NCBI GenBank assembly: GCA_963847625.1
Contig: CAWKAR010000042.1
Location: 1-18,393, forward strand
Source of the DNA: a candidate division FCPU426 bacterium
GTDB taxonomy: Bacteria > Oederibacteriota > Muellerivitia > Muellerivitales > Muellerivitaceae
Direction of reading: 5' to 3'
DNA length: 18,393 nucleotides
Shown: positions 3,270-18,393 of the stretch, piece after piece
How positions within the stretch are numbered: the first letter of the stretch is position 1
How the letters are laid out: the number at the start of each line of letters is the position of its first letter
Notes under the pieces: generated by a model
Told to the model about the DNA's origin: nothing
Database searches by the model: none
What the model saw: only the letters and a program-made list of their open reading frames with translations
Translations under genes and position numbers: made by a program

Positions 3270-5471
3270 ATGCCTTTTATGAAGTTCGGTAAAATGATCC
3301 GGATATTTTTGATTGGAATCGCCCTGGCTTTGGAATGTGCGATCTCTGCTGCGGCTCAATGCACCATAACGGGCGCGACACTTTATTACCAAGATGACGA
3401 TTATGGCCAAGTTTATCTCAATGGTGACCTGCTATTGACGTCCAGTATTTCATGCCTTAACACCCAGTTAACCTATGTCCTCACCCCGGCGGAAATAGCC
3501 CTTCTGGCTGCAGCACCCGGTGAAAACATATTGGCGGTTTACGACACTGACATTTGCGGGGCATTGAGCTGTACAACTTGGGACCTTCAAATCACCTATT
3601 CGAACTGCGCTACACAGGATGTTGCGAGTGACGGCACCTGCACCAAGGATTTTTACGCTGGAATTTATCCAAGTTCCGTTTTCCCAACAGGTTGGAACAA
3701 TTTGAGTTTCGACGACAGCGCTTGGGGTGGCGTCTATACGGCCATCAGCGATCAATACGGACCTCCCCCCAAAACACCCTACTTTGTTACCTCTGGAGGA
3801 GCCACCATCCCTTGGATTTGGGGGGAAAACTCCTTTGTGACCCGGAATACTGGTGATGGATATTTGTTCCGCCAATATTTTACCCTCGGCAATTCCAGCG
3901 CCTGCGCCTTCACACCTCTACCGACGCCTACGGTCATTGGCGCGCCCACCGCCACGCCCACCCCGACCCCGACTATCACACCCACAGCAACATCGTCATG
4001 CGTTATCTCTGGCGCGACCCTTTTTTTCGCAAATGATGATTATGGTGACTATTACCTAAATGGCACTCTTATCGCTTCCTGCCCCACTGCTTCATGTACT
4101 GGTACGTCTTGTTCTTCATATTCCCATATCCTCACTACTGCGGAATTAAACCTTTTAAATCCAACGCCTAGCGAAAATATTTTGGCGGACTATATCACTG
4201 ATGAGGGCGGCGGTGGTTCCGGCGGCACTTGGGACCTCCGGATCACTTATACAAACTGCGGCACACAAGATGTCATAAGCGATGGGACTTGCATCAAATC
4301 TTATTACGCTGGAAATTTTTATGGCACCCCCGTTCCAGTCGCCACCCCCTCAGGTTGGACTAGTTTGGGTTTCAATGACAGTTTATGGAACGGCGTTTAT
4401 GCATCTTTGAACAGCCCTTTTCTTGGTACTTGCCCATATGGATGGCCAACTTTAACGACAGCAGGTGGAACCACCATCCCTTATGTCTGGGGGGTAAACT
4501 CCTTTAATGTCCAGATTCAGGGTGACGGTTACCTATTCCGCCAATATTTTACCCTCGGCAATTCCGGCGCCTGCCCCTTTACGCCTTTACCGACGCCTAC
4601 GGTCTTTGGCGCGCCTACCGCCACGTCCACCCCTTCACCGACATTGACTGTTACACCGACACCGTCATCTACAGTGACTCCCACACCAACCCCCACCCTC
4701 ACGCCCACACCGACCCAAACCCCCACTCCCACCGCCACTTCGACGGATACGAAGACACTTACCCCGACGCTGACCAATACTTCCACCCCCACAGTGACAT
4801 ACACTCCGACGTATACTAAGACTTCTACTCCGACCAAGACCTCAACGCCCACTTCCACGCCAATCTTCACCCCCACGATCACCGACACCTTTACGGTCAC
4901 TAACACGCCCACGATTACCCTTACACCTACATTAACTTTCACCCGGACTCCCACTTATACTTTCACGGCTACTGATACTTGGACCAATACCCCCACACCC
5001 ACGAATACGCGGACCCCCACTCCCACCCGCACGCCGACACTTACATCTACCATTACCGATACATTCACGGTTACCAGCTCCCCCACGATTACTTTTACGC
5101 CCACTCCAACCGCCACCCCGACCGCTACGGACACGCCATGCGGATATCCTGGCAACACCTGTACGCCCACTTTTACGCCTGTCTATACCGACATCTTTTA
5201 CATATCCGAAAATGTTTTTAGCCCATCAGATCCGGTTTCCATATTCGTGGAATACAAACAATTTCCCGGTAATTATTCCCTGAGGATTTATAATTCAGCC
5301 GGGGAACACATCAAAACGCTGGATGAGCAGCATCTGGAAGCCCCGATATCCGCATCTTACCAATGGGACGGGAAGAATAAATTTGGGGATCCATGCGCAA
5401 GTGGGGTTTACATTTTCTATCTGGTCGAACCCTATGACCGGAAAACCAAAAGGGCCCTTCTATTAAAGTAG
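3270..5471 (+). CDS. Secreted protein: two tandem lectin-like (CBM67 / rhamnosidase N-terminal-like) jelly-roll domains, Thr/Pro-rich linker, C-terminal FlgD-Ig / T9SS-CTD-like domain
   Basis: 733 aa. Sec signal ends ..SAAA|Q. Each ~223-aa repeat carries DD-YG-x-YLNG, ENILA, ITY..QDV.SDG, GW...F(D/N)DS.W, IP(W/Y)(I/V)WG and YLFRQYFTL. The C-terminus [14 protein letters not shown]...[20 protein letters not shown]...RALLLK is the FlgD_ig/CTD pattern. Start may be a downstream Met (3279 or 3294). Confidence 0.8.
3867..4625 (+). repeat. 90-nt intragenic direct repeat at the ends of the two lectin-like domains
   Basis: 3867-3956 vs 4536-4625: 83/90 identical with the first 30 nt perfect. Offset 669 nt (223 codons). 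Confidence 0.9.
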
Positions 5472-5717
5472 GCTTGATCCATGATTAGAATGAAAAACCG
5501 GGGTCAGGCTGAACCTATTGAGAAGGATATGTCCCCTAAAAATAAAATTTGGAATGAAGAATTAGGAACCCATTCGAGGCACTTCGTTTACTCAGGGCGG
5601 ATTAAGAGTTAACCACAAAACATCAATAGCATTGAAGCGACATCCTCCCCCTAATTTTTTCCGTGGATTGAAAACCGGGGGGTTTAGTACCCGGGTGTGA
5701 GAGATTTGAGGCTCGAT

Positions 5718-5813
5718 GCCGATTCAGGGAAACAAAAAGCAGGAAAGAACGATCAGGACCCCGCCCCGGACCATCCGGCTGACGTTTTGAGTTTTTCCCC
5801 CGCCAAGGCATAT
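5718..5813 (-). pseudogene. Repeat B copy 1: decayed 3' half of the 47-aa gene at 9602-9745
   Basis: About 89% identical to 9597-9693. Has a 2-nt deletion in the A run, retains the TGA stop, and lacks the 5' part of the gene. Confidence 0.85.
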
Positions 5814-5839
5814 CCATCCGGAAATAATGTTGCCTACAC

Positions 5840-5895
5840 TTGTTTGCAAGAGATATTAATTGTAAGATATATTTAGAAAAAACTAGCATGAGGTG
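5840..5895 (+). promoter_or_regulatory. Putative sigma70 promoter and RBS of the TA operon
   Basis: TTGTTT (5840-5845), 17 nt spacer, TAAGAT (5863-5868) in an AT-rich tract. GAGGTG at 5890-5895 precedes ATG 5900. Confidence 0.45.
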
Positions 5896-5899
5896 TTAG

Positions 5900-6127
5900 A
5901 TGGCCAAGACCCGAGCATTCGCGACTCGTCTTCCCTTCGAGCTTACGCACGCCCTGGATGAAACTTGCCGCAGGCTGGGATTGCGCAAGAATTACGTGGT
6001 GGAAACGGCTCTTAAGGAAAAACTGGAAGACCTATTGGACGCAGAGGATTTGAAAGCGGCCGTCCAGAGCGCCACCGGTTTTCATCCGTGGGATGAAGTG
6101 AAAAAGGGCCTGAAGGGAAGGGCCTAA
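5900..6127 (+). CDS. Type II antitoxin, ribbon-helix-helix (CopG/RelB-like)
   Basis: 75 aa with an N-terminal beta-strand then helices (FATRLPFELTHALDETCRRLGLRKNYVVETAL) and an acidic C-half ending ..PWDEVKKGL. Lies directly upstream of a RelE-like gene and has a good RBS. Confidence 0.85.
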   Translation: MAKTRAFATRLPFELTHALDETCRRLGLRKNYVVETALKEKLEDLLDAEDLKAAVQSATGFHPWDEVKKGLKGRA

Positions 6128-6130
6128 CCC

Positions 6131-6400
6131 TTGCCTTACCGGTTGGAGTTGGAGACGCACGCACGACGGGAGCTGTTGGATTTGCCAAAAAACGTCCAGG
6201 GGCTCGTCATTCCCGTTTTGGATGACCTGCAGAAAGAACCCCGACCCCCCGGTGCCAAGAAGATCACGGGGCATCCGGGATACCGTGTCCGAAAGGGCCA
6301 GTATCGAATCCTTTATACAGTGGATGACACTCAGAAATGGGTCCGGGTATACCGAATAGCGCATCGCCGCGATGTCTACCGCAATCTTAAAGAAGCATAA
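6131..6400 (+). CDS. Type II toxin, RelE/ParE (RelE/StbE) family
   Basis: 89 aa, TTG start 3 nt after the antitoxin stop. Motifs PRPPGAKKITG..YRVRKGQYRILYTVDD...VYRIAHRRDVYR are typical of the RelE family. Confidence 0.92.
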   Translation: MPYRLELETHARRELLDLPKNVQGLVIPVLDDLQKEPRPPGAKKITGHPGYRVRKGQYRILYTVDDTQKWVRVYRIAHRRDVYRNLKEA

Positions 6401-6445
6401 GATAAGACTTGCCCGAAAAACAAATATCCGAAATAAAAATATGCC

Positions 6446-6540
6446 GAAGCCGATTCGGGAAAACAAATAGCGGGAAAGAACGATCAAGACCCCGCCCCAG
6501 ACCATCAGGCTGACGTTTTGGGTTTTTCCCCCCCGCCAAA
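6446..6540 (-). pseudogene. Repeat B copy 2: decayed 3' half of the 47-aa gene
   Basis: Reads WRGGKTQNVSLMVWGGVLIVLSRYLFS on the minus strand. Stop TGA has mutated to CGA and the 5' part is absent. Begins about 20 nt downstream of the MFS stop. Confidence 0.85.
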
Positions 6541-6560
6541 CCGGAATTTCGTTGAAGGGT

Positions 6561-8138
6561 TCAATCCGGCACTTCGATGCTGTCCAGCCTCCCCGCGCGG
6601 TGTATGTTCTTGGAAGGCAGGAACAGCGCCGGTATCAGGGCCGTCATGATGATGACGGCACCCACGATGAAGGAGTCCTCGTACGCCGCGACGGTGGTCA
6701 TTTTGAAGAGATGACGTGCCACGACGGCACCAGCCCCCCTCATGGAGTCGGCATGCGAAAGGCCCAGGGCATGGAGCCGTCCGGCCATGCTCGAGAGAGA
6801 GGCTTGGGAAGCGGGGGTCAGGTTGCTCCAGGCGGAAGCCGCCAACCCCTGGTGGAAAACCTCGCGGTGGCTCAAGACAGCGCCCAAAACCCCGATGCCG
6901 ACGGACCCCGCCACCTGTTGGGTCAGCGTCAGCATGGAGGAGGCCATGCCCGCCTGGTCTTTGGGGACGCTGTTCAAAGCCGTCACCATGACCGGGGTGA
7001 TCAAAAGCGCGATGCCTACTCCCCGGACGAGGGTGGGCTGGACCACGTCCCAAATGCTGGTGTTGATGTCCAGCGTCCGGTAAGCGTACATGGAATAAGC
7101 CACGATCAAGATCCCGAGCAGGGTTGGCCAGAGGGGCCCGACGCGGTCGATGAGTTTTCCGGCCATGGGCATCACCAGGGCGGCGGCCAGGGCGCCGGGG
7201 AGCAGGATCATTCCGCTGGTAATCTCGTCCAAGCCCATGATTTGCATGAGGAAAAGGGGGAGAAGAAAGGTACTCCCGAAAAGGGCCACGGAGCGGGCGC
7301 CTTGAACCATGATGCAGGCGGAATAAACCGGGGATTTCAAGAGCCTAATGTCCAAGATGCCGTGGGGAGTAAGGGTCTCCACCACCGTGAAGCCCACAAA
7401 ACCGGTAAAGGCCAGGCCCCAGCAGGTATAGATGAAGCGTGAAGACCATCCTTCCTCCTCCCCCTGGCTCAAGCCCAGCAGGAACGAAACCAGGAACAAC
7501 GACAGGAAGAGGAAGCCCGCAAAATCAAAGGGGTGTTTGTGGGCATGCTCGGAGGCTTTATCCTCCCGCAAGAGGATGAGGGTCAGGACAATCCCTATGA
7601 TTCCAAAGGGCAAGGTCGAGGAGAATACGGACCGCCACCCGAATTGGTCGCTCAGGTAACCGCCCAAGGTCGGGCCGAAAGCGGGCCCGACAATCACGCC
7701 CAGCCCCCAGTAACCGATGGCCATCCCCCGTTCGTGGGGTTCGAAGACCTCCGCGATCATGGCCAATCCGGTGGGGGTGATGGCGCCCCCTCCCAGGGCC
7801 TGAAGCACGCGGGCCGCCACCAGGGAAGGGAGGTTCCAGGACATGGCGCAGAGCAGGGATCCCAGGGTGAAGACGAACAGGCTCCCCGCGTAAAGCCGCT
7901 TGTAGCCGGCATGCTCCCTCAGCCAGGCCGTCAAGGGCATCAGCGTGGCAAAAGCCAGCATGTAGCCCGTCACCACCCATTCGATGTCGTTCAAGGGCGA
8001 ACCGAAGTCGGCCATGATGTCGGGCAGGGAAACATTGACGATGCTCTGGCTCAAGGCGGCGATGAGGGAGCCGATCATGACGACCCCCAGCACTTCCCAT
8101 TTGTAGGCGGTGCCGGAAACACCATGGGTGTTCGGCAT
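6561..8138 (-). CDS. DHA2 family (EmrB/QacA-like) MFS efflux transporter
   Basis: 525 aa, about 14 hydrophobic segments. Motifs IVNVSLPDIMADFG, WVVTGYMLA, ARVLQALGGG and GPAFGPTLGGYL. Start overlaps the HlyD stop (TGATG). Confidence 0.95.
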   Translation of the reverse strand: MPNTHGVSGTAYKWEVLGVVMIGSLIAALSQSIVNVSLPDIMADFGSPLNDIEWVVTGYMLAFATLMPLTAWLREHAGYKRLYAGSLFVFTLGSLLCAMSWNLPSLVAARVLQALGGGAITPTGLAMIAEVFEPHERGMAIGYWGLGVIVGPAFGPTLGGYLSDQFGWRSVFSSTLPFGIIGIVLTLILLREDKASEHAHKHPFDFAGFLFLSLFLVSFLLGLSQGEEEGWSSRFIYTCWGLAFTGFVGFTVVETLTPHGILDIRLLKSPVYSACIMVQGARSVALFGSTFLLPLFLMQIMGLDEITSGMILLPGALAAALVMPMAGKLIDRVGPLWPTLLGILIVAYSMYAYRTLDINTSIWDVVQPTLVRGVGIALLITPVMVTALNSVPKDQAGMASSMLTLTQQVAGSVGIGVLGAVLSHREVFHQGLAASAWSNLTPASQASLSSMAGRLHALGLSHADSMRGAGAVVARHLFKMTTVAAYEDSFIVGAVIIMTALIPALFLPSKNIHRAGRLDSIEVPD

Positions 8139-9010
8139 CAGTTGACCTTTATTCTTATTTCCACCGACTGCCCGGCTTTCAGGACGCGGCCCGGGTGGGG
8201 GTCCAGCCCCACTTTGATGGGGATGCGCTGGACCAGCTTGATGAAATTGCCCGAGGCGTTCTCGGCCGGAAGCAGGGCAAATTGGGCGGCCGTGGCGGTC
8301 GTCACTTCCAAGACATTGCCCGTCAGGTTTTCCCCCTCGTCCACGTGGATCTTAACCGGCTGGCCCGCCTTCACTTTGCCCACGTAGACTTCCTGGATGT
8401 TGGCCGACACCCAGGCGTGGTCCACGTCCGCCACCACCAAAGCCACCTGGCCCGATTCCAGCAGGTTCCCCACGATCCCGATTTTCTCCACCACGATCCC
8501 GTCCACCGGACTTTTCAAATAGGTATGATCCAAGGCGTTCTGGGCCAATAGCAGGTCGGCTTGGGCCGATTGGGCGTTGGCTTGGGCGGCTTGGTCATCC
8601 CGGAAAGCCAGGGCGCCCTGCTTGTAAAGCCGGCCGGCGCGGGCGAAATCAGCCTGGGCCAGGGTTGCGCGAGCCTGGGCTTTCAGGAGCTGGGACTGGT
8701 AAACGGTATGTTCCAACTCCGCCAAAACCTGGCCCCGCCCGACGCGGTCCCCCTCGGTCACGTTGACCTTCAAGACCGTCCCGCTCACCCCGTCGGGGGC
8801 GATGCGGACCAGGTCCTCGGCCACCCTGGCGTCATCGGTGGTTACGTAAGGCCGGAAGGCGAAAAACCAAACCACCAAGCCGGTGACCACCGCCGCCAAA
8901 AAAGCCAAACCCGAGTTTTTCGCCAGCTTGGACCGCCACCAGGGATTACGCGCGGCATGCGGGCGGATCTCGGGATGTCCGTCCGTTTTATCGACCGTTT
9001 GGGGGTTCAT
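8138..9010 (-). CDS. HlyD/EmrA-family periplasmic adaptor protein
   Basis: 290 aa with an N-terminal TM. Motifs YVTTDDARV, lipoyl half-motifs (V.EGDRVGRGQVL; LKSPVDGIV) and FALLPAENASGNFIKLVQRIPIKV. Start overlaps the MarR stop (ATGA). Confidence 0.95.
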   Translation of the reverse strand: MNPQTVDKTDGHPEIRPHAARNPWWRSKLAKNSGLAFLAAVVTGLVVWFFAFRPYVTTDDARVAEDLVRIAPDGVSGTVLKVNVTEGDRVGRGQVLAELEHTVYQSQLLKAQARATLAQADFARAGRLYKQGALAFRDDQAAQANAQSAQADLLLAQNALDHTYLKSPVDGIVVEKIGIVGNLLESGQVALVVADVDHAWVSANIQEVYVGKVKAGQPVKIHVDEGENLTGNVLEVTTATAAQFALLPAENASGNFIKLVQRIPIKVGLDPHPGRVLKAGQSVEIRIKVN

Positions 9011-9501
9011 GCGTTTCTCCTGTGCGGGTTATTTGCCATGGGGATGGCTTCGTTTTTTTCCACCGAAAGGTATTGGAACAATTTTTTAAGGATATTCGAA
9101 AACCGCGTTTTTTCGCCGGCGGAAAGGGCCTTCAGGGAGCCTTCGGACAGAAGCAGGTAAATCCTCTCGACTTCCACGGTCAGTCTTTGGCCCCGGGGGG
9201 TCAGGGCCAGCACCCAGCGCCTCTTATCCGTGGGATGCTCCTTTTGGCTCACGAGGCCCCCTCCCAGCAGGACGTTGACCACCCGGGTCATGGCCGCGGG
9301 GTCGGTCATGGTGTCGCGGGAAAGTTCGGCCAACGAGGCTTTGCCCCGTTTGGCGAGAAAACGCAATAGGGAAGCCTGTTTGACCCCCAAACCCAGGGGC
9401 CTTAAGGCATTGGAAAAATGAAGGTTCAGGGCCCGCCGGAAGCGGGCGAAATCCTCCAGCAGGAGAAGGTCGGGATTGGATTGGACAGGCTTGGATTTCA
9501 T
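9007..9501 (-). CDS. MarR family transcriptional regulator
   Basis: Winged HTH with DPAAMTRVVNVL...HPTDKRRWVLALTPRG. Start placed at ATG 9501 (MKSKP) because the 9 extra codons of the 9528 start fall within a palindromic operator-like site. Confidence 0.92.
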   Translation of the reverse strand: MKSKPVQSNPDLLLLEDFARFRRALNLHFSNALRPLGLGVKQASLLRFLAKRGKASLAELSRDTMTDPAAMTRVVNVLLGGGLVSQKEHPTDKRRWVLALTPRGQRLTVEVERIYLLLSEGSLKALSAGEKTRFSNILKKLFQYLSVEKNEAIPMANNPHRRNA

Positions 9502-9528
9502 GGATATATCAATAATAGATATGTCCAT
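9500..9528. promoter_or_regulatory. Imperfect 29-bp palindrome, probable MarR autoregulatory operator
   Basis: ATGGATATATCAAT-A-ATAGATATGTCCAT: 14-bp arms pair at 12/14 positions. AT-rich and abuts the marR start. Confidence 0.7.
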
Positions 9529-9601
9529 CTATTTCAAGGGGATTTTAAAAAACTTGGGGCCAGGCTCCTCGCGCCGCCAAATTAAAATTTGCGGAAGCCG
9601 A

Positions 9602-9745
9602 TCAGGAAAACAAAAAATAAGAAAGGACGATCAGGACCCCGCCCCAGACCATCCGGCTGACGTTTTGGGTTTTTTTCCCCCGCCAAAGCATATAAATCCC
9701 AATAGTCCCCACCACAAAGCTTCCGAGGATTTTAAAAATGGACAT
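9602..9745 (-). CDS. Small 47-aa two-TM membrane protein (not in ORF track); its 3' half is repeat B copy 3
   Basis: MSIFKILGSFVVGTIGIYMLWRGKKTQNVSRMVWGGVLIVLSYFLFS*. Two hydrophobic stretches with a basic RGKK loop. ATG lies 6 nt after the PBP stop, in the same orientation. Confidence 0.75.
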   Translation of the reverse strand: MSIFKILGSFVVGTIGIYMLWRGKKTQNVSRMVWGGVLIVLSYFLFS

Positions 9746-9751
9746 AGGGGG

Positions 9752-11578
9752 CTACTTTTTCCCCGACTCCGAGGTCAGGTCGATGAAATCCATGATCCCC
9801 TCGATCACCTTTTTGGCGATGGGAGCCGCCACGTCCTTGCCCATCCCGCCGTTTTCCGCCAGGATGGCCATGGCGATCTTCGGGTTGTCCACTGGCGCGA
9901 AGCAAATGAACCAAGCGTGGAAGTTGGGGTCCCGGCTCCCGGAAGTCCCGGTTTTTCCGGCGATCTTGATCCCCTTGACCCGCGCCTTGACGCCGATGCC
10001 CCTTTCCACGTCGTTGTACATCATGGTGGTGAGGAATTGGGCCGTCTGGCGGCTGATGGTGTTCTTGTATATCACCGGTTTCCACTCCTCCAGCACTTTC
10101 CCGTTGATGTTGGTGAGCTTATCGACCAAATAAGGCGACATCATGATTCCGTCGTCGGCGATGGCGGAGGCCATGAGGGCCGCGTTAAAGGGGGTGATCC
10201 GGAAGGATTTTCCCAACCCGGTGGCGGTTTCCGCCAGCTCGTAACGGCTTAAACCGAGCTTGGGCGAGATGCTCATCGCCATGGGAAGATTGATGGTCTT
10301 GGGGATGGAGTTGAAGCCGAAGCGGTTGTTGAACTCGAAAAGGGAATCCTCGCCCAATTCCTCGCCCAGCTTGGCGTAGGCCATGTTGCAGGAGGCGTCG
10401 AAGGCTTCCTCCAGGCTCTTAATCGTCTTGTGCTTGTGCCAATCGTAAAAAATCTTGCCGTCGATGTAGGTGAAACCCTTGCAATACAAGGGGAAGACCT
10501 TGTTGAGGTCGATATTTTTTTCCAGGGCCGCGGCCGAGCTGATGATCTTGACGATGGAACCCGGCTCATAAAGGCCCTCGAAGGCGCGGTTCTTGAGCGG
10601 ATAGTTCTTGTTTTCAATATATTTCCACCAATCATCGTGGACCTTTTCGGGAGTGAAGGTGGGCTGGGAGATGCATCCGAGTATCTCGCCCGTCTTGGGA
10701 TTCAAAATCACGATGGCGCCTTTTTGCCAGCCCATCGCCTTGGAAAGAACCCTTTGGATCCGGCTGTCCAGGGTCAGGTAAAGTTTGTTGCCGGGGAAAT
10801 AATCCTGGTAGATCTTCTCCAAGCCCGAATTGCCCCGGTTGTTCACCGTTTGGATGTCCATATAGCCGATCAGGTGGGCGAATTCCTTCCCGTAGGGATA
10901 GCCCCTCTCGTTGTTCTTGATCCATTCAAGGGCCAGGGGAACCCCGTTGCGGTCGAAAATGTAATAGATGTTCCCCCGGTCCTTTTCCTCCCGGGCTTGC
11001 TCCAGCAGGACCTGCATTTTTTTGTTTTTCGGGTCGTAAACGAGGGCCTGCTCGTAGTATTTTTCCCCCTTGGTCACCTGGCCCAGGGCGCGTTCGGTGG
11101 TCCCCAAGGCGATGTAAATGTCCGGATTGTCCTTTTGGAGCTCCAAGGCGTGCTGGAGTTCCGCTTCCGCCAGATCGTATTTACCCTCGTCGATGAAATA
11201 CTGGCCCGTTTTCAAGTGATTGAAACGGCGGCTGTAAGTCAATCCCTGCTTCATGGCCTGGTCGTAAAGCTGCCGGGCCTTATCCAGGTCGCCGGCCTTG
11301 ATTTCCACCAGGCCCAGGCCGTCCAGGGCCTGGGCGTTGCCGGGATTGCGGCTGAGGACCTTGTTGAATTCCATGCGGGCCATCTCCAAATTGCCGGTCC
11401 GCCAGTACTTGATCCCTTTCAGGAAATTGTAATGGTTGATAAGGACTGTCTTGGAGGTCACCACCCCGCTGAATACGAGGATGAATAAAATGAACGTCCT
11501 GAAGGAAGGAAGTCTGCCTCTGCGTTTTCTGGATAGGGACATGGGTTGAAAGCGTTTGAAAGGGTCGTTCAGGGCCAT
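9752..11578 (-). CDS. Class B penicillin-binding protein (transpeptidase) with N-terminal TPR domain
   Basis: TM anchor, about four TPR-like repeats, short pedestal (IFDRNG, FAHLIGY, GLEK, LTLDSRIQ), and transpeptidase motifs SxxK (PGSIVK), SxN (SCN) and KTG (KTGT). Start at 11578 is supported by AAGGAG upstream; the ORF extends to 11608. Confidence 0.93.
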   Translation of the reverse strand: MALNDPFKRFQPMSLSRKRRGRLPSFRTFILFILVFSGVVTSKTVLINHYNFLKGIKYWRTGNLEMARMEFNKVLSRNPGNAQALDGLGLVEIKAGDLDKARQLYDQAMKQGLTYSRRFNHLKTGQYFIDEGKYDLAEAELQHALELQKDNPDIYIALGTTERALGQVTKGEKYYEQALVYDPKNKKMQVLLEQAREEKDRGNIYYIFDRNGVPLALEWIKNNERGYPYGKEFAHLIGYMDIQTVNNRGNSGLEKIYQDYFPGNKLYLTLDSRIQRVLSKAMGWQKGAIVILNPKTGEILGCISQPTFTPEKVHDDWWKYIENKNYPLKNRAFEGLYEPGSIVKIISSAAALEKNIDLNKVFPLYCKGFTYIDGKIFYDWHKHKTIKSLEEAFDASCNMAYAKLGEELGEDSLFEFNNRFGFNSIPKTINLPMAMSISPKLGLSRYELAETATGLGKSFRITPFNAALMASAIADDGIMMSPYLVDKLTNINGKVLEEWKPVIYKNTISRQTAQFLTTMMYNDVERGIGVKARVKGIKIAGKTGTSGSRDPNFHAWFICFAPVDNPKIAMAILAENGGMGKDVAAPIAKKVIEGIMDFIDLTSESGKK

Positions 11579-11745
11579 GAAACTTTTCTCCTTAGGGAAT
11601 CCAAGCATTTTAGTGAGAATGAAAAAGGAATAAAGGGAAAAAAGGGAGCCGCTGAAAAAGGATTCGAATAAGTTGCCTGGACGGCCGTGGGAACGTTAAG
11701 ATAACTTGCGTTTGAGAAAGCCGCCCCAAGACCCGGCCGTCAAGG

Positions 11746-17346: not shown

Positions 17347-17410
17347 TTGGCGAATATCCCTTTGAAATAAGTAAACAAGAAAATTAGATTCGATAGTCAA
17401 ACCATTTAAC

Positions 17411-18393
17411 CCCGGATTTCCCAGATGAAATTACCTTTCGAGTATAATAAGGCGTCGTTTGGCCATACAAACAAAGGTTTTTCTTCACTTTGGGGACCAC
17501 GAGAGGGGGGAATGCAATGGGTGAAAGGGGAAAAGACGCTCTTCGGGTGGTTTTTGATCCTGGTCTCAAGCTGGAGTTCCATGGCGCGAAGGTCACTTCC
17601 GATGGCGGGTTGATTCCCTATCGTGAACTCGATGAAGCCTTTGGTTTGACTGACAGAACGGAAAACCTTCTGAGGGATCGGCGAACCGGCAAGAATACGC
17701 AACATACGATGACGGCGCTTTTGCGGCAATCAATCTACAGCCGCCTAGCCGGTTACGAGGACACCAACGACGCAGAACGATTGAGTGTTGATCCGGCGAT
17801 GCGGCATGTGATCGGAGGACGGGCCAAGGAAAAACAAGCTGCCTCCACCAGCCAGATGGGACGTTTCGAGACGGAAGTTCTCACCCAGTCGAAGAACCAG
17901 ACCGGTCTGATTGACCTATCTGGCCAATGGATTGATGGTGTCCATGAAAAAAAGCCCATCCAGCAGATTATTCTCGACATGGACAGCTCCGTGAGTGAAA
18001 CCTACGGGGACCAAGAAGGTTCCTTGTACAACGGTTACTTCGGCTGTACCTGTTACCATCCCCTGTTTTGTTTCAACCAGTTTGGCGATTTGGAACGGGC
18101 AATGTTGCGCAACGGCAATGTGGCCAGCGCCCACGAGTGGCGGTCGGTTCTTGAACCAGTGGTTGTCCGTTATCGGGGTCTTTCCATCAGCCGTTTTTTC
18201 CGGGGTGACGCGGCCTTCGCCCGTCAGGAACTATACGAGTACCTAGAAGACGAAGGATACCTTTATGCGATCCGCCAACCCGCCAATGGCGTGCTACAAA
18301 GAGAAATTGAGCCATTTTTGACCCGTCCCGTGGGCCGCCCTTCCCACAAGCCGGTTGTCCGGTATCACAGCTTCCAATACCAAGCCGTCAGCT
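17411..18393 (+). mobile_element. IS1380 family insertion sequence, left end (truncated by window)
   Basis: Putative left IR CCCGGATTTCCCAGATG at 17411-17427 after AT-rich TTAAC, TATAAT at 17443-17448, then the transposase. Exact end is uncertain by 1-2 bp. Confidence 0.85.
17517..18393 (+). CDS. IS1380 family DDE transposase (partial, open at window end)
   Basis: MGERGKDALRVVFDPGLKLEFHGAKVTSDGGLIPYRELD...RLAGYEDTNDAERL...LDMDSSVSETYGDQEGSLYNGYFGCTCYHPLF...FRGDAAF. No stop within the window. RBS GAGAGGGGG upstream. Confidence 0.95.
   Translation, partial: MGERGKDALRVVFDPGLKLEFHGAKVTSDGGLIPYRELDEAFGLTDRTENLLRDRRTGKNTQHTMTALLRQSIYSRLAGYEDTNDAERLSVDPAMRHVIGGRAKEKQAASTSQMGRFETEVLTQSKNQTGLIDLSGQWIDGVHEKKPIQQIILDMDSSVSETYGDQEGSLYNGYFGCTCYHPLFCFNQFGDLERAMLRNGNVASAHEWRSVLEPVVVRYRGLSISRFFRGDAAFARQELYEYLEDEGYLYAIRQPANGVLQREIEPFLTRPVGRPSHKPVVRYHSFQYQAVS

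Follow-up and report, generated by a model that had tools for sequence, protein, structure and literature searches.

The window analysed here is the whole of contig C42 (18,393 bp), one of the 63 contigs of a 4.43-Mb, 94% complete metagenome assembly (G000) of a candidate division FCPU426 bacterium. The window contains an array in which two gene modules, a toxin-antitoxin (TA) pair and a marR-emrA-emrB efflux operon, alternate with three copies of the 3' end of a gene for a 47-residue membrane protein, referred to below as the small gene. The subject of this report is the array and the way in which it may have arisen. Comparisons were made with the sister genome from the same genus (G001) and across 30 other genomes of the family.

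Composition of the array

At the right-hand end of the array stands the gene for a tetratricopeptide repeat (TPR) transpeptidase, a penicillin-binding protein (PBP), whose position upstream of the small gene is conserved (9752-11608, minus strand). The small gene itself begins 6 nt after the PBP stop codon, on the same strand (9602-9745), and encodes a protein with two predicted membrane helices. It is intact, and its 3' half constitutes copy 3 of the repeat. The short flank after its stop (9579-9601, minus strand) is common to copy 2 and absent from copy 1.

The interval between copies 3 and 2 is taken up by the emr operon, with all three genes on the minus strand. They encode a MarR-family regulator of 173 aa (9007-9528; PF12802, 39.4 bits against a cut-off of 27), a membrane-fusion protein of the EmrA/HlyD type of 290 aa (8138-9010; PF16576 and PF13437, above their cut-offs), and an EmrB-type DHA2 MFS efflux permease of 525 aa (6561-8138; TIGR00711, 380 bits against a cut-off of 230, and PF07690). 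The presence of a DHA2 permease, an HlyD-type adaptor and a MarR regulator, in reading frames that overlap or abut, identifies the module as an EmrAB-MarR operon. A near-perfect palindrome at 9500-9528, in which 10 of 11 arm positions pair, overlaps the start codon of marR. It is also conserved ahead of the G001 marR gene, and probably serves as the operator for MarR.

Copy 2 (6431-6540, minus strand) runs from about codon 20 of the small gene to the former stop codon, now CGA, and then includes some 30 nt beyond the stop, in which a hairpin resembling a terminator lies at 6444-6458. Between copies 2 and 1 lies the TA pair, on the plus strand. A RelB-like antitoxin of 75 aa (5900-6127; NCBIfam NF048017, 37.9 bits, E 1.5e-9, which is below the cut-off of 50; no Pfam match) is followed by a toxin of the ParE/RelE family of 89 aa (6131-6400; PF05016, 29.3 bits against a cut-off of 23, and a weak TIGR02385 match). 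With a toxin domain above its cut-off, a small antitoxin gene upstream and only 3 nt between the genes, the pair has the features of a type II TA system. Its upstream region (5823-5899, plus strand) contains a promoter-like TTGCAA-18-TATATT sequence at 5844-5873. Each of the two intervals holds one self-contained unit, as had been claimed in a preliminary description of this DNA and is now borne out by domain searches.

Copy 1 (5714-5819, minus strand), delimited by repeat search, BLAST and alignment, extends from about codon 16 to the stop codon and about 10 nt further. It is followed downstream by a flank, here called H (5660-5713, minus strand), which is 85% common with C35:9108-9153, a segment beside another remnant of the small gene on contig C35. 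This flank probably represents the sequence that originally followed the small gene.

The gene-end repeats

An ungapped repeat search returned a direct family of three copies, at 5714-5801, 6445-6532 (90%) and 9592-9679 (82%). According to gapped BLAST alignments, copies 1 and 2 are 88.4% identical over 95 nt (5714-5806 against 6445-6539), copies 1 and 3 are 86.9% identical over 107 nt (5715-5819 against 9594-9699), and copies 2 and 3 are 86.4% identical over 110 nt (6431-6540 against 9579-9687). The E-values of these pairs, 1e-27 to 1e-30, are far beyond chance. The preliminary description had reported a direct repeat of about 95 bp and had assigned it to the 3' half of a 47-aa minus-strand gene, intact at copy 3 and broken in copies 1 and 2. 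Both statements hold, with the copies now placed at 5714-5819, 6431-6540 and 9579-9699 and alike at 86-88%. Exact matches between pairs of copies reach at most 21 nt, and no run of more than 13 nt is invariant in all three. In copy 1, codons 1 to about 15 are gone, 2 nt are deleted in an A-run, and residues that are invariant in the family are altered (W34R, Y43C). In copy 2, the first 19 or so codons are missing, and the stop is lost (TGA to CGA).

The boundaries of the copies are nested. Copy 1 stops 10 nt beyond the stop of the gene, and the flank that follows recurs only on C35. Copies 2 and 3 have a further 15-20 nt in common beyond this point, after which the TA module and the emr operon follow, respectively; in copy 2, the terminator-like hairpin falls within this additional part. 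At the other end, copy 1 extends 12 nt deeper into the small gene than copy 2, and is therefore not derived from it.

A genome-wide BLASTN search with the repeat, which the preliminary description had suggested, located two further remnants of the small gene, at C63:72923-72988 and C35:9060-9153. In a small tree, copies 1, 2 and 3 and the C63 remnant cluster, with G001 as their sister. The duplicated DNA is therefore the lineage's own allele, not that of a distant donor. Some sites of the alignment are incompatible with each other. Codon 31 is CGG in copies 1 and 3 and CTG in copy 2 and the C63 remnant, whereas codons 42-43 are TCTTAT in copy 3 and the C63 remnant, versus TCCTGC or TCCCGC in copies 1 and 2. 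This pattern can be read as exchange among the copies. All five G000 copies overlap in one stretch of about 25 nt, ...GGGGTCCTGATCGT..., and each has changes there.

The C35 remnant carries 45 nt of the flank of copy 1 and adjoins the 3' end of a paralogous secreted-protein gene, and its surroundings include a type I restriction system and IS3 copies. This remnant is accounted for by a simple segmental duplication. On the same contig, an element of the IS3 family (C35:6736-8696, locus L011; orfA 7232-7579, orfB 7576-8421) is located between 246-nt direct repeats of 96.7% identity. These repeats form part of a tandem array, the GGGCAGTTTATCC-type motif of which occurs on C57, C60 and C39 as well. 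The contig of the C63 remnant contains a stretch of about 140 nt (C63:70980-71135, locus L012 6981-7136), of which at least seven copies (85-92%) are scattered over G001, and which represents a dispersed short repeat.

The small gene and its locus in relatives

A six-frame search detected the small gene in 29 of the 30 other family genomes. In 30 genomes from elsewhere in the order and phylum, matches were weak or absent. In the six relatives examined with long flanks, the small gene is always located behind the PBP gene. The small protein of other genera has 70-90 residues and consists of the same two hydrophobic segments and a polar tail. This tail is gone in both species of the genus, with different stops, TAA after F46 in G001 and TGA after S47 in G000. 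Beyond the stop, the G001 sequence can still be aligned to the DNA that encodes the tail in other genera, and the sequence after the C63 remnant weakly resembles the tail region. The H flank, too, bears a weak likeness to this tail region and to the C63 remnant, and could possibly be a degraded vestige of the C-terminal tail region still present in other genera.

We examined 25 related loci at the small gene, 19 from family genomes and 6 from metagenomes. The latter were taken from 11 loci found by searching metagenome contigs with the PBP query, the other five being short or ending before the end of the PBP gene. All 11 are at most 81% identical to the query, and therefore represent other genera rather than nearer strains. 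At 19 of the 25 loci the order is fixed, namely PBP gene, small gene, (transglutaminase-like (TGL) gene) and a convergent M24 peptidase gene. Four loci have one other gene before the M24 gene, encoding an insertion sequence (IS) transposase, a TPR protein or one of two hypothetical proteins, and a gene-end remnant is absent from all four. At one locus the small gene was not detected, and the remaining one, that of G001, has undergone a large rearrangement. A second copy of the small-gene end is present at none of the 25 loci, and a second strong match to the small gene is present nowhere in the 30 other family genomes. The proposal that the site is an integration hot spot is not supported across relatives, in view of the fixed order at most loci and the lack of remnants at the four loci with other DNA.

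In both genomes of the genus, the M24 gene and the small gene are far apart. They are separated by 84 kb on a single contig in G001, still in convergent orientation. In G000, the M24 gene is located at C63:48952-50091, and the remnant on this contig, of 55-65 nt, lies 23 kb beyond it in the expected orientation. It may be an older, displaced gene end. Contig ends were also compared for an overlap of at least 15 nt, by which C63 might run into C42, and none was found.

Collinearity between G001 and the window begins at 9609, immediately beyond the stop of the small gene, and continues rightwards across the PBP and RmuC genes (83.5% over 3.4 kb). Downstream of the G001 small gene there is unrelated DNA, with neither a module nor a remnant. 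Of the two things that the preliminary description had hoped to see in relatives, an empty site thus exists in G001, but alternative cargo between gene-end repeats was found in none of the genomes examined.

Origin of the two modules

In G001, the emr operon (81% nucleotide identity to window 6557-9544) shares the interval from dnaJ to a nitroreductase gene with three further genes. In G000, where a single emr copy was found, the orthologues of these two bordering genes are separated by 92 bp, and in other genera the neighbours of the operon differ again. In the EmrB tree, the G000 protein is the sister of the G001 protein (support 93/93). The cargo therefore looks like an operon of the lineage that has been relocated, not like an imported cassette. 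The GC content of the emr operon is 59-64%, versus 52-58% for its neighbours; this comparison is within G000 only, and no origin is inferred from it. For the TA pair there is one homologue among the 30 other family genomes, in G017, with 71% nucleotide identity.

Elsewhere in the family, the EmrB of G025 (L045) is 92-93% identical to the proteins of G011 and G030 of genus g11 (L043/L044), while the PBP proteins are only 78-79% identical. In this case the emr operon seems to have been transferred horizontally from one genus of the family to another.

Similar arrays on unrelated sequence

An arrangement that mirrors the small-gene array, but at the 5' end of a gene, is present on another contig of G000 (C12:10500-13450; locus L073 2052-4950). 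There, the 5' end of an adenylate/guanylate-cyclase gene, comprising the first 30-70 codons and 60-170 nt upstream, is present in three direct copies (91-93%), which bracket a gene for a 103-aa hypothetical protein and a PAS-cyclase gene. The TA homologue of G017 (L052 3746-5984, contig C47) also lies between three direct repeats, of 50-77 nt and 62-74% identity, at spacings of 1459 and 703 nt. A short dyad (GGTTTCGAGTTGGAACC) is present in these repeats. They resemble a fragment of a protein-coding gene, for which no intact source was found in the 31 family genomes. They have no likeness to the small-gene repeats beyond that of shuffled sequences, and the G017 site is absent from G000. The occurrence of such architectures on unrelated sequence argues for a general process, and not for one special att site. 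Local direct repeats are common in G000, with 228 pairs of 45-260 nt at distances of 0.3-8 kb (233 minus 5 of very skewed composition).

Search for recombination machinery and activity

No recombinase domain is encoded between 5400 and 9800, and the stretch 5718-9745 contains no integrase or attC-like fold, in agreement with the preliminary description, and no IS. The sole transposase of the window is located at 17490-18392, and within the window no IS or transposase flanks the modules in the manner of a composite transposon. A tRNA scan and an Rfam search found neither a tRNA nor an Rfam family in the region. The 18 tyrosine-recombinase matches (PF00589) in the genome are all on contigs other than C42. 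No recombinase is on C35 or C63, the contigs with other copies of the repeat, beside which the preliminary description had suggested looking for such genes.

An attC-like hairpin is not apparent from the six folds of the repeat (three copies, both strands), which have z-scores of -0.91 to +0.76 against shuffles, and the repeat search revealed no inverted repeat at the module boundaries. Eight families of palindromic dyads from a genome-wide search were tested in the window, and none is located at a module boundary. The best one, a 30-bp palindrome, TTGTCCACG-N12-CGTGGACAA, has 33 copies in the genome with fixed spacing and 113 with relaxed spacing, often in local clusters (C19:110969-119291, C41:64745-71067). 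It is absent from the window by pattern, and the best score in a position-matrix scan, 3.9, compares with a mean shuffle maximum of 4.7.

Four public sequencing runs contain at most 0.13 of the sampled words. Over 4800-11000 they provide only low-depth unitigs of 150-280 nt, none of which crosses the repeats. There is no excision or empty-site junction among the unitigs, in a coverage that is too thin to count for or against excision. A 151-nt unitig from another run matches 9434-9584 exactly, from the region upstream of marR up to the flank of copy 3. Nothing shows present-day mobility or a working cassette system.

A tentative history of the array

In view of the lack of modules at the G001 site, the location of emr elsewhere in that genome, the sporadic occurrence of the TA pair and the self-contained nature of both units, two insertions with a duplicated gene end are the simplest history. 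What survives of the proposed integration at a gene end are these two insertions with their duplicated ends, for which G001 provides the empty counterpart. For the proposed cassette system as a working one there is no sign, and no recombinase could be tied to the site. Our preferred explanation, which we hold with somewhat less than even confidence, is that the repeats are old scars of two duplicative insertions of the single-crossover type at the end of the small gene, for which general recombination is likelier than a dedicated integrase.

Each insertion would have been the Campbell-type entry of a DNA circle that carried the cargo together with the lineage's own gene end. After such an entry, the proximal copy would be an intact gene and the distal one would lack its 5' part. 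In the first event, the TA pair would have entered, and copy 1 would have been left on the old downstream flank. In the second event, the emr operon would have entered, with duplication of about 94 nt of the gene and about 15 nt brought by the TA module, to give copies 2 and 3. The nested boundaries of the three copies fit this order, with the TA pair first and the emr operon second. The exchange likely took place by ordinary homologous or illegitimate recombination, and the array is likely inert now.

Several points weigh against this explanation. No circle, empty-site junction or hybrid junction was observed, in reads that are too thin for a test, and there is no explanation for the first origin of a circle with a distant operon and the gene end. 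A stretch of 21 identical nucleotides is short for RecA-type exchange, and since no shared run is longer, movement driven by homology can be claimed only for the past. If the TA pair came first, copies 2 and 3 should be the closest pair, yet at 86.4% they are no closer than copies 1 and 2 (88.4%) or 1 and 3 (86.9%), in counts that are too small to tell. Moreover, two insertions in one stretch of 100 nt, together with two remnants elsewhere, are also what would be expected of a site-specific system. Finally, the EmrB proteins of G000 and G001 are only 78% identical, versus 91.5% for PBP. We first took this value as a sign of foreign origin, and dropped this interpretation in view of the tree, which groups the two proteins as sisters. 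They are most simply regarded as orthologues that would have diverged fast, although a foreign origin of one of the two emr operons is conceivable.

Alternative explanations

Errors of replication or duplication are a doubtful alternative, but one that is inseparable from the preferred explanation on present data. Either a replication fork would have switched to a distant template and returned about 100 nt behind its point of departure (templated insertion), or a large tandem duplication would have been joined in the small gene and later trimmed through deletions. This route requires neither a circle nor a special site. It is consistent with the derivation of the duplicated DNA from the target and with the tight edges of the cargo, since homology to the G001 operon begins about 16 nt ahead of the marR start and ends shortly after the emrB stop, and the junction on the emrB side lies in a shared TTT. 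The mirror-image locus on C12 and the 228 local direct-repeat pairs of the genome also fit. However, the same 100 nt would have to be hit by two independent errors. A copy-paste process should keep the source, yet emr is matched nowhere else in the 94%-complete assembly. The tandem-duplication route requires at least three events per module, in addition to the loss of the second emr copy. The literature matches listed for templated insertion concern mainly the human genome, and there is no bacterial precedent among them.

If the movement was driven by homology or replication, a whole operon was moved, or an addiction module was gained, at a gene end without the machinery of a mobile element. 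Such insertions would create direct repeats that later resemble att sites, which is a caution for genomic-island callers that treat the duplication of a gene's 3' end as sufficient evidence of an integrase. As a single array that is old and specific to one lineage, the case is of value mainly as a well-resolved example.

We consider it unlikely that the copies form a true array of att sites, in which a recombinase that is encoded elsewhere or has been lost would recognize a core in the 3' end of the small gene, and integrase-less mini-elements with the gene end as attP would have been stacked. The site appears to have been used repeatedly, as judged from the two nested insertions and from the C63 and C35 remnants beside variable DNA. 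A core could lie in the 25-nt stretch in which the five copies overlap, the tyrosine-recombinase matches in the genome would offer candidates, and the excerpted accounts of tycheposon stacks and composite staphylococcal cassette chromosome (SCC) islands provide precedents. Against this, C42, C35 and C63 are devoid of recombinases, the run identical in all three copies is at most 13 nt, and a second gene end is found in 0 of 30 other family genomes and at 0 of 6 metagenome loci. In addition, the allele of all copies and the operon that forms the larger cargo both belong to the lineage itself, the C35 remnant with the flank of copy 1 is explained by segmental duplication, and analogous gene-end duplications exist on the unrelated sequences of C12 and G017. 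If a trans-acting recombinase were responsible after all, a gene for a 47-aa protein would be an unusual att site.

A more general claim would be that the family has a route of gene capture that operates without an element-borne recombinase and inserts operon-sized DNA at gene ends, with a target duplication of 100-250 nt. We regard this as rather improbable. If it were true, the captured units would be flanked by portable homology, by which they could later be excised and re-inserted, and the small-gene, C12 cyclase and G017 TA arrays would be three products of one process.

An assembly artefact, or a chimera of strains joined at the repeats, might be suspected in a 63-contig metagenome assembly for which public runs offer only short, low-depth unitigs that bridge no repeat, but it is very improbable, because the copies differ at 12-14% of positions, share no run beyond 21 nt and have unique flanks each, and because the 151-nt unitig exactly equals 9434-9584; an error by repeat collapse is unlikely as judged from the 21-nt maximal run.

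Relation to known systems

Integron cassettes and clusters of attC sites lacking integron-integrases (CALINs) consist of small promoter-less or self-contained units in a row, with a recurring element of 60-140 nt between them. The array in G000 is similar to them in that its units stand in a row and are parted by a recurring element. It differs in that the repeat is a coding fragment without a hairpin beyond shuffles, in the absence of IntI and attI, and in having two units only.

A closer parallel may be the composite SCC islands at orfX/rlmH of staphylococci, including the ccr-less pseudo-SCC. As far as the excerpted text goes, these islands carry extra direct repeats and a psiSCC (PMC3026799). 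Modules are stacked there behind the 3' end of a conserved gene, with direct repeats of the gene end as boundaries, and some modules lack a recombinase of their own, as in the array described here (PMC3026799, excerpted text). In contrast to the 95-110-nt repeats of G000, which are 86-88% alike and for which no recombinase is known, the SCC cores are given in the same excerpt as 15-19 nt and serve as recognition sites for CcrAB, which the island itself encodes (PMC3026799). Also unlike SCC, as portrayed in these excerpts, the cargo in G000 is a single operon, and the array is present in one lineage only.

The tycheposons of Prochlorococcus are the other parallel. The excerpted account describes stacked elements parted by partial tRNAs, and scattered partial tRNAs from degenerated elements (bioRxiv 10.1101/2020.12.28.424599). 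Successive integrations push the older elements outward, partial target copies remain between neighbours and remnants are scattered, all of which has its likeness in G000 (same source, in excerpt). According to the same excerpt, however, the target of tycheposons is a tRNA and their recombinases are of the tyrosine type, whereas in G000 the target is a gene for a 47-aa protein, there is no recombinase, and the larger cargo is a relocated operon of the lineage (bioRxiv 10.1101/2020.12.28.424599).

Other features of the window

The transposase at the right-hand end of the window belongs to an IS with a DDE_Tnp_1_4 domain (17407-18393), which is truncated by the contig end and is 88-93% identical to two copies in G001. 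To the left of the array, two large Pro/Thr-repeat proteins with a C-terminal sorting domain of the FlgD_ig/CHU_C type are encoded at 484-2814 and 3270-5471. They belong to a very large paralogous family, of which the final 71 nt recur on many contigs. The upstream regions of the two genes (229-311 and 2840-2921) are repeats of each other at 85-90%. Between the end of the second gene and the flank of copy 1 lie about 200 nt (5472-5660) that are absent from the paralogous C35 locus. This segment is made of pieces that recur on C45, C57, C24 and C46, and may be a small inserted repeat element.

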